Assembly: GCA_964016885.1 (NCBI GenBank)
Contig: OZ024753.1
Coordinates: 16,988,001-17,052,000 of the forward strand
Source of the DNA: Eledone cirrhosa
Taxonomy: Eukaryota
DNA: 64,000 nt
Direction of reading: 5' to 3'
Numbering within the stretch: position 1 is the stretch's first letter; the number at the start of each line of letters is the position of its first letter. Position numbers and translations under genes: made by a program. The notes beneath the pieces are model-generated. The model ran no database searches. It was not told the origin of the DNA and saw only the letters and a list, made by a program, of their open reading frames with translations. Below, one piece after another: positions 15,521-52,696 of this stretch.

Positions 15521-15705
15521 TAGGAAAAGCGTCAGGACCCCGACGGCTGAGCTCCGGCCGTTTCGACAGCTAGTTTCGATTCGGATCTAGCTGTCGAAAC
15601 GGCCGGAGCTCAGCCGTCGGTGTCCTGACACTTTTCCTATTACCCACTCTACTACCCTAAGTATCGAGTACTGTCCACCTGCTACCTTACCACACCATCT
15701 TTGTA
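15521..15705 (+). mobile_element. Palindromic PLE 3'-end fragment, family A
   Basis: ~52-bp inverted arms plus ~65-nt tail (TATTACCCACTCTACTACCCTAAGTA...) between (TA)n tracts. Confidence 0.85.
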
Positions 15706-15742
15706 AATGTATATATATATGTATATATATATAGGAAACTCT

Positions 15743-15837
15743 GACATATCCGAGGATCTTGCGATTTCAGAGTCAGGTTTGATCATTGCATCGATCGTGC
15801 CTCGAGCTGGTCGCCAGAGAAACGACTGTAATATGTC
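15743..15837 (+). ncRNA. Type I hammerhead ribozyme motif (CCGAGGA core variant)
   Basis: Stem I GACATAT/ATATGTC, CCGAGGA, stem II TCTTGCGAT/GTCGCCAGA with 44-nt loop, GAAA-CGACTG-TA. Confidence 0.75.
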
Positions 15838-15883
15838 TAATAAATCTTATTCGTCGCACCAATGATTCTCCGTTTCTTATGTG

Positions 15884-16362
15884 ATATATATATATATATA
15901 TATATATATATATATATATATATATATTTATATATATATATATATATATATATATTTATATATATATATATATATATATATATTTATATATATATATATA
16001 TATATTTATATATATATATATATATATTTATATATATATATATATTTATATATATATATATATATATATATATTTATATATATATATATATATATATATA
16101 TATATATATATATGTTTATATATATATATATATTTATATATATATATATATATATTTATATATATATATATATATATATATATATATATATATATATGTT
16201 TATATATATATATATATTTATATATATTTATATATATATATATGTTTATATATATATATATATTTATATATATTTATATATATATATATGTTTATATATA
16301 TATATATATTTATATATATTTATATATATATATATATATTTATATATATTTATATATATATT
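15884..16362. repeat. (TA)n microsatellite with TTTA interruptions
   Basis: Direct; one of many (TA)n tracts in the window. Confidence 0.97.
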
Positions 16363-16671
16363 TCTGCGGGTATGTCAACATTTATACAACAAATTTTGTA
16401 TTTTACCTGGTTGCCCTTGAAATATATATAATAAAATAATTATCGTTTTATAAATATAGTTTCCATTTATTAATATATTGAATATTTACTCCAGTAAATT
16501 GTTGAGTGCTTTATATCAATTATAAAACTTTTAAGCTTGTTGAATCCTCAACAAATTAATATATATATATATATATGTGAAGTAATTCCGTCGCAAAAGT
16601 CCAGGAAAAAAGAGTGCTCTATGTAGGTAACAGAGCTTAATAGTTATGTAATAAACAACATAAGGCAATTA

Positions 16672-16731
16672 TTCCATTTACCAGTGGTTTCTTAAAAGCA
16701 AAAAATTTTGCTTTCAATCCTCAGAATGAAA
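16672..16731 (-). ncRNA. Minimal hammerhead ribozyme motif
   Basis: Reverse complement reads TTTCATT CTGAGGA TTGAAAGCAAA..TTTGCTTTTAA GAAA CCACTGG TA AATGGAA. Confidence 0.8.
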
Positions 16732-16838
16732 AAATCCTGGTTTGTTTATTGAATTTGGATTTTAAAAACCTATATACATACACCATGGACCTTTATGAGG
16801 TTTTTTAAAATCCAAATTCAATAAACAGACCAGGATTT

Positions 16839-16898
16839 TTTCATTCTGAGGATTGAAAGCAACATTTTTTTCTTTTAAGAAACCACTGGTAAATGGAA
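16839..16898 (+). ncRNA. Minimal hammerhead ribozyme motif
   Basis: TTTCATT CTGAGGA TTGAAAG..CTTTTAA GAAA CCACTGG TA AATGGAA. Confidence 0.8.
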
Positions 16899-49030: not shown

Positions 49031-49956
49031 GACCATATCTTTCTTAATCGGGTGTAGTATTCCCTGGTTACGCGGTCCTTATTACAAATACCATTGTATG
49101 TATGTATGTATGCATGCATGCATGTGTGTGTGTGTGTGTGTGTGTGTGTGTGTGTGTAATGATTTTACCTTGCCAGTCATTTTCAATTATTGTTGTTGTC
49201 ATTGTTGTTATTGTTATTAGTTTTCTTGTGTTTGTTGTTGCCCGACATCGTATTCAAAGCTTCTTCTTCTTCTTCTTCTTCTTCTTCTTCTTCTTCTTCT
49301 TCTTCTTCTTCTTCTTCTTCTTCTTCTTCTTCTTCTTCTTCCACACAAGTAATGCTCCCTTGATATACTTTGTAGCTAAAACTTGCATAAAGAAAAATAA
49401 TAATAACGAATACAACAAAAGTAAAAAAAAAAAAGACCTTTCCTTCCCAACACACTAACTCGAAACCTCCACAAAACACACACACACATACACATGCACA
49501 AATACACATATGAACACATACACATATGCACACATACGCACACACACAACAAAAGCAAAAAAAACAACCTCTTCTTCCCAACAAACTAACCCGTAACCCC
49601 CTCCCCCACACACACTCACACACGCCCGCTCACGCACACGCACATACATAAATATGGACACATACACATATGCACGCATAGGCATACATACATACATACA
49701 CAACAAAAGCAAAAGAGGCCTTTTCTTCCCAACAAACTAACCCGTAACCTCACACTCACACACTCACACTTACACACACACACTCTCTCACACACACACA
49801 CACTCACACTCACTCACACACACTCTCTCACACACACACACACACACAAACCACACACACACACTCACACTCACACACACACTCACACACACAAACAACA
49901 CACACACACACACACAAACAACACACACACACACATAAAACAGGCCCAAATTGTAG

Positions 49957-50188
49957 GAAAGTTCGGCAGTATTGGTTTAAAATAACATTGGAAACAAAAG
50001 AGATACGACTGCTTCTATGTGTGTAGTGCAAGAAAGAAAGAAATGATTCGAAGCGAGGGTTAGTCGCCATTGTGTTGAACATTCAGACGAACGGACAGAT
50101 GTAAAGAAGATCGATCACGTGACCAGGATCAAATTTGTTGTTGTAAGGGATCTTCTTTCAGAGAAGAAACCAATCCACTCGACTATAA
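49957..50188 (+). CDS. Candidate micro-exon cluster (49957-49968, 50027-50058, 50087-50142, 50162-50188): KVRHARKKEMIRSEDERTDVKKIDHVTRIKFVVRRNQSTRL*
   Basis: GT-AG introns of 58, 28 and 19 nt chain in phase. Fitted by eye only. Confidence 0.25.
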
Positions 50189-50766
50189 AGTGATTGTAGT
50201 TTCGTTTCGGTTTGTAATTTGAGAAATACGGGCACACGCTAGAAGTTGTTTTTTATTAAGAAGCATTATGTACGTATGTGTGTGTGTATGTATGTGTGTA
50301 TGTACTATGTATGTGTGTATGTACTATGTATCTGTGTGTGTACGTATGTGTGTGTGTACATGTGTGTGTGTACACTTGCGTAAAATAATACACGAAAAGT
50401 ACATACACACGCATATATATATATAGTAATAATAATAAATTTGAAGACTAAATTCCAAAGAGGGCTCGATAAGGATAAATATATATCAAATATATAAGAA
50501 CTGTAGAGCAAATATTTATTAAATAACGTATGATATATATATATATATATATATATATATTTCGTTTCTGAATTTGTTTAGCAAGATTCTTTATCTGAAA
50601 TCGTGTGTTGAAACCGATATTGTTATACTTTGGGAGGGTCATGTTGCCAATAAGGAACACACGCACCAGTTGCTTTCACTTCAATTTATTATATATTTAT
50701 AAATTTATAAATTTATAAATTTCTGGTTGGTTGGTTGGTTCCACAACCAGATAGTTGTTTATATAT

Positions 50767-50811
50767 AGTCATAGTCCTTTCGTAACACACTCTGTGACCT
50801 CTTCAGTGACT
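50767..50811 (-). ncRNA. Minimal hammerhead ribozyme motif (left arm)
   Basis: Mirror of 52254-52298 with one stem II substitution. Confidence 0.75.
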
Positions 50812-52253
50812 GGGGATTCCTTTCTTTGTTTCTGTGCCTCTCCTTTGTTCTGTCCTACGCCATTTTGTTTCTGTGTGTGTGTTGTGTGCTCAGTTTGCGC
50901 ATGCGCCACATCCGGGTGTCTGTGTGTGTTTATGTTCATTTATCTATTTGTTTATTTATTTATTTATTTATTTACATGTTATTGGTTGGTTGTTTGTTCT
51001 ATGTGTGTGTGTGTTTTCATTTTGTCCTTAATTGTAAGTTGTGATGTTGCTGTTCCACTCATATTTTCTATTTAATTTTGGTTGTAATTCTTTTATGTTT
51101 ATTGCCTCTGTAATTTGTCTAAACATTGCATCTTTTCTGTGTGTAGATTCTATTTTTATTTCTATGTTCTCTAATTTACCCTTGTGTTCTATCTTAGCAT
51201 GTTGGTAGAGTACAGATGATTCTTTATTATCTTGAAGGTCTCGCCAGTGTTCATTTATCCGTTCCCCTATACTACGAGCTGTCTCACCTATGTACACTAT
51301 ATTTTTGTTTCTACATTGTCCTTCAGTACATCTTATGCTATACACTACATTTCTAGTTTTACAGTTAATATGGGGGCTTATTTTACAGGTTATACATTTC
51401 TTATCTATACATTGTATAGGAGCAAATTTTGGAATAGAATAGAAAGAACTAGGAACAAGGCTAATAGAATAAACTCATGGTATGATAGCAATAAATACCA
51501 GAGTGTAATGTTCATCGATACAACCCCTAGAGGCGAACTAGCCTACAAATTTAGAAGGGCCCTAAATAAACATAAACTCAATATTAAGATAGTAGAAAGA
51601 CCAGATACCTCCGTAAAAACACTTATTAGCAAGACATACCCTTTTCAAAGACTCTCATGTATAGATAAGAAATGTATAACCTGTAAAATAAGCCCCCATA
51701 TTAACTGTAAAACTAGAAATGTAGTGTATAGCATAAGATGTACTGAAGGACAATGTAGTAACAAAAATATAGTGTACATAGGTGAGACAGCTCGTAGTGT
51801 AGGGGAACGGATAAATGAACACTGGCGAGACCTTTAAGATAGTAAAGAATCATCTGTACTCTACCAACATGCTAAAATAGAACACAAGGGTAAATTAGAG
51901 AACATAGAAATAAAAATAGAATTTACACACAGAAAAGACGCAATGTTTAGACAAATCACAGAGGCAATAAACATAAAAGAATTACAACCAAAATTAAATA
52001 GAAAATATGAGTGGAACAGCAACATCACAACTTACAATTAAGGACAAAATGAAAACACACACACACATAGAACAAACAACCAACCAATAACATGTAAATA
52101 AATAAATAAATAAACAAATAGATAAATGAACATAAACACACACAGACACCCGGATGTGGCGCATGCGCAAACTGAGCACACAACACACACACAGAAACAA
52201 AATGGCGTAGGACAGAACAAAGGAGAGGCACAGAAACAAAGAAAGGAATCCCC

Positions 52254-52298
52254 AGTCACTGAAGAGGTCACAGAGTGTGTGACGAAAGGACTATGACT
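52254..52298 (+). ncRNA. Minimal hammerhead ribozyme motif in PLE 3' UTR
   Basis: AGTCA CTGAAGA G GTCACA GAGTG TGTGAC GAAA GGAC TA TGACT. Confidence 0.85.
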
Positions 52299-52468
52299 AT
52301 ATATAAACAACTATCTGGTTGTGGAACCAACCAACCAACCAGAAATTTATAAATTTGTAAATTTATAAATATATAATAAATTGAAGTGAAAGCAACTGGT
52401 GCGTGTGTTTCTTATTGGCAACATGACCCTCCCAAAGTATAACAATATATATATATATATATATATAT

Positions 52469-52696
52469 CGGGGAAAAGAGTCAGGAAGTCAGGACCCCGA
52501 CGACTCAGCTCCGGCCGTTTCGACAGCTAGATCCGAATTAAGCCAGGCTGGCTTATCTCGGATCTAGCTGTCGAAACGGCCGGAGCTCAGCCGTTGGGGT
52601 CCTGACTCTTTTCCTATTACCCACTCTACTACTCTGAGTATCGAGTACTCTGGTGCGTTATGGTCTACTTGGTATCTTACCACACTTTCATTGTTA
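52469..52696 (+). mobile_element. Palindromic PLE 3'-end fragment, family A
   Basis: Long hairpin plus ~80-nt tail in (TA)n, directly next to the family G insertion. Confidence 0.88.

Follow-up and report, generated by a model that had tools for sequence, protein, structure and literature searches.

The window, a 64,000-nt stretch of Eledone cirrhosa DNA (contig OZ024753.1, positions 16,988,001 to 17,052,000), carries copies of one short element at 15521, 17480, 18715, 33860, 34083, 35938, 37567 and 52469. All eight lie where an earlier note on this DNA had placed them. Seven are short elements (minis), and the 37567 copy continues, as had been claimed, into the 3' UTR and ORF of a Penelope-like element (PLE); the ORF is broken. 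The features, with strand in brackets, are:

15520-15705 (+), subfamily A mini: short arm 15520-15573, loop 15574-15586, then long arm with tail
17481-17670 (+), subfamily B mini (17480 copy): short arm 17481-17532, 6-nt loop, long arm with tail
18715-18859 (+), subfamily B mini with a 7-bp fold-back; parent-like sequence from the base equivalent to 37706
33860-34055 (-), subfamily A mini: long arm on the minus strand (tail cut short), short arm 33999-34055
34083-34194 (+), asymmetric subfamily A mini: inverted arm equivalent to 37645-37687, direct arm beginning near the short-end site
35938-36106 (+), asymmetric subfamily A mini: inverted arm to 17 nt upstream of GAAA, direct arm from the helix III loop
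37568-37713 (-), PLE 3' tip and homologue of the minis (90-93% to those of subfamily B), with the long end at 37568 and the short-end position at 37645
37613-37639 (-), Hydra-type tail signal (RCTC ... GAGYACT), beginning 5-6 nt after the short end
37661-37756 (-), predicted type I hammerhead-like motif: helix I 37756-37752/37665-37661, U3-A8 core 37751-37745
37741-37733/37699-37691 (-), helix II of that motif, with a 33-nt loop
37688-37685 (-), GAAA of that motif, followed by helix III; predicted cut after 37666
37703-37737 (-), candidate core promoter (post hoc pattern match): TATA-like 37737-37731 at -31, initiator-like with a putative +1 at 37706
37757-38649 (-), remaining 3' UTR; low depth at 38031-38410, with a 150-nt tandem duplication
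38650-39835 (-), broken Hydra-clade ORF remnant: end of the reverse transcriptase (RT), thumb, CxCX5C linker, endonuclease with CxxC and CxH; frameshifts and stops
39836-39958 (-), copy of an abundant SINE-like repeat, marking the 5' limit of the PLE remnant
52470-52694 (+), subfamily A mini with an extended central palindrome

Every copy (8/8) terminates in (TA)n, and the flanks, inspected for target-site duplications, were microsatellite. Six of the eight consist of head-to-head 5'-truncated arms with a tail at one end. The palindromic form ascribed to the whole set holds for four copies (15521, 17480, 33860 and 52469), with arms of 52-60 nt; the inversions in 34083 and 35938 are asymmetric, the arms of 18715 measure only 7 bp, and the 37567 copy has no inversion. 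The 34083 and 33860 copies are arranged tail-to-tail across (TA)n. The check proposed earlier, whether loop sequences recur or differ across loci, gave a clear answer: the junctions differ in all seven inverted copies. That of 33860 is complex (26 nt), and the 6-nt loop of 17480 has the parent orientation on the short-arm strand. The centres are indeed close to GAAA, approximately 16-26 nt upstream of it, but they fall in loop II, immediately 5' to the 3' strand of helix II and not inside it; the earlier note had put them in or at the edge of that strand.

Homology to the 37568-37713 tip confirmed that the minis derive from the 3' end of a PLE. On the sequence evidence, this parent is the element at 37568-39835, and it belongs to a Hydra-clade family. 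The Nematis-type label given previously was not upheld. The linker between RT and endonuclease reads CNCPDRSTC in the 39647-39033 frame, which is the Hydra-clade CxCX5C pattern and not of the CX2-5CxxC type, and the C-terminal CxxC and CxH are absent from the Nematis rows of Fig. S7. The 38877-38650 frame aligns to an intact relative and agrees by eye with the Hydra rows of that figure. The 37567 copy has the 3' UTR hammerhead of the clade, and insertion into (TA)n is likewise a Hydra-clade property. The assignment rests on the linker, the C-terminal motifs, the hammerhead and the (TA)n target, the N-terminal part of the ORF being absent from the window. A Pfam search of the four Hydra ORF pieces gave no match. 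The join of the 37567 copy to the ORF does not reflect chance nesting: an X5 contig with another species label (record 9) spans it, covering 37664-37823 with 23 differences, and opposite-strand and skipping joints at other loci connect tip-proximal UTR with the ORF end. The GIY-YIG element at 50560-52444 was rejected as parent; it shares no sequence with the minis and has its own ribozyme.

The earlier note had stated that every copy lacks the ribozyme 5' half. This is true of the seven minis, in which the full set of core boxes is not found, but the 37567 copy does have one, a TTGACAA core at 37751-37745 with partners for helices I and II. Helices I, II and III of this copy comprise 5, 7 and 5 pairs in order; majority letters of other copies, at 37740 and 37754, restore helices I and II, the latter to 9 pairs. 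When the 150 nt upstream were shuffled 20000 times, such a 5'-half arrangement arose 10 times. In the decayed 37567 copy the ribozyme-shaped fold is less stable than the predicted minimum (-14.6 against -23.4 kcal/mol), and the 150 of 271 Rfam matches listed comprised microRNA-like and other sub-threshold matches and no hammerhead family. The U3-A8 covariant core has been described (PMC4209133), and is present at a further locus (L007) too. The majority letter at 37762 would lengthen helix I as far as the short end. This extension was not adopted as the marker of that end: in relatives the distance from the cut site on to the short end is 27-48 nt, which makes the tail signal the marker of wider application.

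Both outer boundaries, which had been described as fixed, recur genome-wide in public runs as loose ends joined to (TA)n. For the long end there were 160 contigs in X1 and, in X7, a run biased by restriction sites, 8788 reads; the short end was seen in 106+110 contigs of X1, in 2995 reads of X7 and in X5 contigs. It corresponds to position 37645 of the parent, 77 nt before the long end at 37568. In Hydra relatives the tail signal was found at 17 of 33 ribozyme-like sites (54 loci), against a background of 0.03 per 170 nt, and was duplicated at 9, with 57-71 nt between copies. The seven placeable termini lay 0-6 nt before the first half of the signal; targeted end alignments (n=5) gave two clean placements, two rough ones and one too divergent. 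Folding of the signal in three minis (z 0.10, 0.11 and -0.85) revealed weak pairing and no clear hairpin. A second tail signal is predicted, though it was not observed, beyond 37568. The short end had been taken for a stopping point. It fits better as a second priming site, because three of the seven inverted copies (17480, 34083 and 35938) hold upstream sequence on the short arm only, and because short-type ends in Hydra relatives sit directly before a duplicated tail signal.

The uneven distribution of breakpoints was also confirmed, as a depth cliff inside loop II. Summed contig depth fell approximately 28-fold between 37696 and 37717. In X1, which may be the source sample, the sums, which are not copy numbers, were 1.97M at 37651-37726, 0.154M at 37717 and 0.071M at 37727-37802, and flat beyond. 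Among the 15 of 91 joints listed, 37654/37705 and 37655/37694 resemble the type with upstream sequence on the short arm only. Piles of X7 read starts and ends (37575, 37711, 38708/11, 39216, 39431/4 and 39613) were discarded as fold-back points, lying at most one letter from two restriction-type motifs. A search for inverted repeats in the 54 Hydra-relative loci found no comparable mini, and thus does not address the break position there; an exact-pattern scan of metagenome and viral contigs gave 0 matches.

We propose that the minis are likely dead-end products of the PLE in (TA)n, made from two fixed priming sites 77 nt apart with run-off at the predicted RNA 5' end in loop II, a combined reading that we hold tentatively, at slightly worse than even chances. 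Its priming component is probable. Run-off at a transcription start site as the cause of the break is nearly a toss-up. It is favoured over stalling at helix II because there is a TATA-like box at -31 and an initiator-like site at 37706, where 6 of 10 mini arms have A. Each cut target end would prime one cDNA, both starts lying just 5' of a tail signal. Transcription from the upstream pseudo-LTR would begin at about 37706, and with priming at the pseudo-LTR/ORF junction, copying would be confined to the initial 60-140 nt of the RNA; fold-back or microhomology would then link the two cDNA ends head to head. A transcript starting at about 37706 would be missing the upstream ribozyme's 5' half and would not remove its own cap. 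In an anole PLE the tail spans the distance from one RT start site to the other, and cutting and extension take place on both strands of the target (PMC11167929). Against this proposal, the asymmetric copies could be later deletions, no tandem pseudo-LTR/ORF junction of this Hydra-clade family was seen, and 4 of the 5 tip-to-endonuclease joints listed extend beyond the ribozyme.

The 1081-nt UTR has 9 initiator-like sites, and a TATA-like box at -28 to -33 accompanies just one of them, the site at 37706. The pattern background is approximately 0.0016 per 20 nt, for patterns picked after the sequence had been seen and with a relaxed TATA. The TATA-like letters double as the helix II 5' strand. 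At the +1 register 4 of 10 mini arms read AGT, and G precedes 2 of those 4; in the 18715 copy a G absent from the parent precedes the base equivalent to 37706. An extra G is expected from a copied cap (PMC4859970). The core-to-GAAA span, longer than in relatives, also counts in favour of the proposal. PLE transcription start sites have been located in the pseudo-LTR (PMC2377424; PMC8557442). Against the candidate promoter, that of Drosophila Penelope is TATA-less (PMC2377424), column agreement across arms showed no sharp stop at +1, and 52469 has a 7-nt stretch matching the B parent further upstream than +1. It is doubtful, though conceivable, that the family's core promoter is embedded in its own hammerhead, with the initiator in an enlarged loop II, and that the minis are genome-wide fossils of the RNA 5' end, left by a dimeric enzyme at two start sites that a duplicated tail signal, conserved across the Hydra clade, would set. 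Were the embedded promoter real, the upstream repeat would be transcribed as an uncuttable half-ribozyme and the downstream repeat as a whole one.

In an adjusted form of the cause advanced in the earlier note, the RT would stall or change template at helix II/loop II of the ribozyme fold, where the new cDNA is self-complementary, and each mini would be an independent event. The break does fall within loop II, and the distance from one GAAA arm to the other in 33860 and 52469 (~50 nt) comes near the 56 nt that helix II and its loop occupy in the parent. Loop II also contains a 7-bp mini-hairpin that agrees with the 17480 junction, and palindromes at PLE inversion junctions have been interpreted as self-priming (PMC3846280). 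However, before helix II the enzyme would come upon helix I, helix III and the palindromic loop III, and no copy in the window is centred on these. The two other ribozyme-bearing palindromes of the window (16640-16930 and 50621-52444) turn upstream of an intact ribozyme and hold it whole in both arms, and 4 of the 5 tip-to-endonuclease joints listed reach 37836-37888, past the ribozyme. A single snap-back of long-arm cDNA cannot yield short arms with extra upstream sequence. Stalling was not supported as the cause of the break, and we regard it as rather unlikely.

Unstable palindromes are expected to undergo loop flips and asymmetric loss. The variety of junctions could thus have followed the amplification in trans of one or a few non-autonomous masters already broken in loop II, whose boundary was inherited. 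The large excess of tip over body agrees with this, as do known non-autonomous PLE derivatives (MRC1, PMC8557442; retrozymes, bioRxiv 10.64898/2026.07.22.740005). It is made improbable by the differences among all seven junctions, which extend to the sisters 17480 and 18715 (long arms 98.5% identical), and by the same break register in two subfamilies. The lack of a dominant centre joint among the 15 joints listed points the same way, weakly, since palindromes interrupt contigs and the loop is a cutting site in X7. Self-cleavage of the template would fix an RNA 5' end, and the parent motif appears complete, but 10 arms run at least 30 nt past the predicted cut, through helix III and GAAA, and the anole PLE was inserted with no need of cleavage (PMC11167929). 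The arm lengths contradict a boundary set by cleavage, which we rejected as extremely improbable.

How PLE inverted repeats and tails form, and what the hammerhead does, are open questions according to PMC8557442. With its great abundance, two fixed starts and narrow break zone, this family makes it possible to test two-site priming directly against self-priming across the genome. A concrete candidate for protein recognition is the duplicated tail signal. An RNA start inside the ribozyme would show how an element with identical end repeats keeps its own cap. The two-start and run-off reading would help to explain integration in this poorly understood class.

The element shares with the Hydra-clade PLEs described by Craig et al. 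(2021; PMC8557442) the linker, the C-terminal motifs, (TA)n targets and a type I hammerhead approximately 100 nt from the 3' end. It differs from Hydra-clade relatives in its core-to-GAAA span (56 nt, as against 10-36 nt at 26 sites), its UTR of ~1080 nt, and the 5-bp helix III, 9-nt loop and U3-A8 core of this copy. The parts of PMC8557442 that were consulted make no mention of a large class of minis broken in loop II. An arrangement of head-to-head arms with the tail on one side is already known from PLEs (PMC3846280; PMC11167929; PMC8557442). Inverted pseudo-LTR plus tail insertions (Arkhipova et al., 2013, PMC3846280; Frangieh et al., 2024, PMC11167929) share these arms, junction palindromes and an A/T-rich target; their tails are 30-40 nt, whereas here the tail is 77 nt, the break is concentrated in the ribozyme and the duplicated tail signal is common to Hydra families. 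Non-LTR retrozymes (bioRxiv 10.64898/2026.07.22.740005) are likewise non-coding, PLE-derived and hammerhead-related. The minis were not assigned to them: retrozymes are tandem units, each with a whole type I hammerhead, whereas the minis are inverted and have the 3' half only.

The Nematis clade resembles this element in having an RT followed by a C-terminal endonuclease, and differs from it in the linker and C-terminal motifs. A further comparison is L1 twin priming (cited in PMC4859970). In that process an inverted segment results from a second priming event. The 34083 copy shows the near-adjacent segments expected of it. In contrast to L1, the second site here is fixed, and the two cDNAs usually overlap to give a palindrome.

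All eight hairpin-like mini-elements (minis) of the earlier note were present in the window, in animal DNA rich in microsatellites, and (TA)n terminated every one of them. The following features are relevant here.

15521, 33860, 34083, 35938 and 52469: subfamily A copies
17480, 18715 and 37567: subfamily B copies
37568-39835, minus strand: parent Penelope-like element (PLE), with the 37567 copy as its 3' tip
38650-39835: parent ORF remnant, interrupted by frameshifts and stops and bordered by a SINE-like repeat

The description of the minis as palindromic held in full for four of them, with arms of 52-60 nt; two were asymmetric, one had 7-bp arms and the 37567 copy was uninverted. 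In 37567-copy coordinates, with the minus strand as sense, the long outer end lies at 37568 and the short one at 37645. Both recurred as loose ends joined to (TA)n in three public sequencing runs (X1, X5 and X7).

The parent had been labelled Nematis-type. The linker is of the CxCX5C type, and CxxC and CxH surround a conserved E and N at the C terminus. In section 11 and the Fig. S7 text of PMC8557442, this linker and the C-terminal CxxC and CxH define the Hydra clade, and the Nematis rows of Fig. S7 lack them, so that, by these motifs, the label is wrong. A search gave 34 relatives out of 74 candidates (34-46% identity). The parent UTR has low depth and a 150-nt tandem duplication at 38031-38410, and another locus skips 37878-38630.

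A chance nested insertion had been envisaged for the join of tip and ORF. Record 9 of X5, under another species label, spans the join (37664-37823, 23 differences), and X7 ties the tip-proximal UTR to the ORF end, both through one joint jumping from 37878 to 38630 and through five joints between opposite strands that link 37700-37888 with the endonuclease region (among 15 of 91 joints listed, each resting on one or two read starts). In X1 contigs with a variant at 37717, the variant lay up to 55 letters from contig ends. No single piece in the public runs covered the whole parent. Judged from these sequences, the join is genuine.

The claim that no copy has a ribozyme 5' half does not hold for the 37567 copy. 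It carries a TTGACAA core (37751-37745); the five bases before it are complementary to the strand that follows the predicted cut, and the seven after it to the strand before GAAA, the box of the ribozyme 3' half. Shuffling the 150 nt upstream gave this arrangement in 10 of 20000 trials. A covariant U3-A8 core is described in PLEs (PMC4209133, in part), and covariant cores also occur in the Hydra-clade metagenome loci L007 and L011. Majority letters were taken from four public runs at 80% likeness (40 of about 1010 difference rows listed). At 37740 the majority letter lengthens helix II to nine pairs (X1, 48835/49375 in 94 contigs; X7, 443/461 reads; also X5 and X6), and at 37754 it turns a helix I wobble into a G-C pair (X1, 22741/23204; X7, 233/366). 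Against this, the predicted minimum-energy fold of the decayed copy is more stable than the ribozyme-shaped fold, and no hammerhead was among the 150 of 271 matches listed by Rfam. The 37567 copy holds a hammerhead-like motif with both halves, a putative ribozyme.

Summed depth in X1 was 2.19M and 1.97M in bins 1 and 2, 0.154M at 37717, 0.071M, 0.077M and 0.058M in the next three bins and 0.016-0.122M in ORF bins; such sums do not measure copy number, and X1 could be the source sample. The fall from bin 2 to bin 3 was 28-fold in X1, 13.5-fold in X7, 8.5-fold in X5 and 3.5-fold in X6. This cliff, between about 37696 and 37717, coincides with the helix II loop (loop II); breakpoints are therefore not evenly spread, as had been proposed. 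Piles of read starts and ends in X7 coincide with restriction-type motifs and were set aside.

The break had been placed at ribozyme stem II and attributed to stalling or template switching there. The cliff lies in the loop of that stem. The arms extend far beyond the cut site, which excludes ribozyme cleavage as the cause. Stalling at helix II is possible, but it leaves unexplained the passage of earlier helices, the whole ribozymes retained in other families, and four of five tip-to-endonuclease joints that go past the ribozyme motif (15 of 91 joints listed). The break could instead come from run-off at an RNA 5' end inside loop II. The 1081-nt UTR has nine initiator-like sites, and that at 37706 alone is accompanied by a TATA-like box at the usual distance (-31); the background is about 0.0016 per 20 nt, with consensus patterns chosen after the sequence had been seen. 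The core-to-GAAA span is 56 nt in the parent versus 10-36 nt at 26 sites in relatives, and so leaves room for promoter spacing. PLE start sites are located in the pseudo-LTR (PMC2377424 and PMC8557442 section 10, in part).

The 37706 register, 18 nt before GAAA, has A in 6/10 mini arms and AGT in four, two of which have G in front, as expected where a cap is copied (PMC4859970, in part); in 18715 the extra G closes the fold-back. Run-off at 37706 is weakened by the parent sequence being that of subfamily B, by 52469, which may reach further upstream, by column agreement without a sharp stop at +1, and by the TATA-less promoter of Drosophila Penelope. We nevertheless favour run-off at a candidate transcription start near 37706 as the cause of the break.

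The short end had been read as a stopping point. It is indeed fixed, but a second priming site would fit better than a stop. The 17480 loop has the parent orientation on the short-arm strand, and the short arms of 34083 and 35938 include sequence absent from their long arms; second priming can make these three, whereas snap-back of tail-primed cDNA cannot. Later deletion is an alternative origin for two of them.

Across 54 metagenome loci of Hydra relatives, with 33 ribozyme-like sites (some duplicates), a GAGYACT-type motif lay 56-95 nt after the cut site at 17, was doubled (57-71 nt apart) at nine and was absent at 16; its background is 0.03 per 170 nt. The motif is preceded by RCTC, and the two pair in 16 of the 17 non-mini units that were folded, all picked for this pairing potential (z below -2 in six). 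Seven placeable termini lie 0-6 nt before RCTC (L011 twice, L018, L044, L036, window 16930 and the minis' short end); a further three pairs gave rough or uninformative placements. The motif is present in the minis' tail, a further link between them and the Hydra clade, but it folds poorly there. A second tail signal is predicted just beyond 37568. In L011 (1-433, 2504-2936, 2953-3117, 5388-5552) two different Hydra elements, both carrying a tandem pseudo-LTR, are joined at their tails across (TA)n; one hammerhead core is G3-C8.

Further inverted structures, with whole ribozymes in both arms of examples such as 16575-16930 and 50560-52444, and other repeats were found in the window.

50560-52444: second PLE family, inverted GIY-YIG fragment; 792-bp arms (97.9% identity), a whole hammerhead per arm, ~60-nt tail on one end; linker and C terminus Nematis- or Neptune-like by eye
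35194-35501: further tip of that family
16575-16930: Hydra-type palindrome, centre ~60 nt upstream of the core, sharing the minis' tail signal
62874: apparent short-ended relative of 16575-16930
60676-60957: palindrome apparently with a hammerhead 3' half only; centre ~60 nt upstream of GAAA, tail ~65 nt
62397-62715, 63108-63291, 62009-62060: palindromes; the loop of the first contains a hammerhead-like core box
35747-35892/37305-37445 and 36381-36582/37016-37218: nested inverted-repeat pairs around (TA)n; minimal hammerheads face each other in the outer pair
45217, minus strand: similar minimal hammerhead motif
2774-about 13570: 43-nt satellite, ~245 units
30368-30976: 55-nt minisatellite
17799-17946, 20547-20728, 24672-25990, 28066-28456, 39836-39958, 54852-55237, 56336-56525, 59446-59850, plus others: abundant SINE-like family (~20 copies; tandem cluster at 24.7-26 kb), which may resemble cephalopod SINEs
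45943-46572, 48142-48720, minus strand: C-terminal fragments resembling non-LTR retrotransposon proteins, with no Pfam match

In the open-licence papers and preprints covered, mostly at abstract level, there was no report of breaks inside a PLE hammerhead or of twin priming in PLEs. The tail signal was not found there either, in a motif search that would miss embedded matches and with supplements represented by PMC8557442. In the parts of the sources consulted, the standard PLE form is an inverted 5'-truncated copy with a tail on one end (PMC8557442, PMC3846280), and for the anole PLE the tail corresponds to the stretch that separates two RT start sites, cutting and extension affect both target strands, and ribozyme cleavage is dispensable (PMC11167929). 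We conclude that the minis are a real, abundant and unusually stereotyped variant of this known anatomy of PLE insertions, and that the proposed mechanism is testable.
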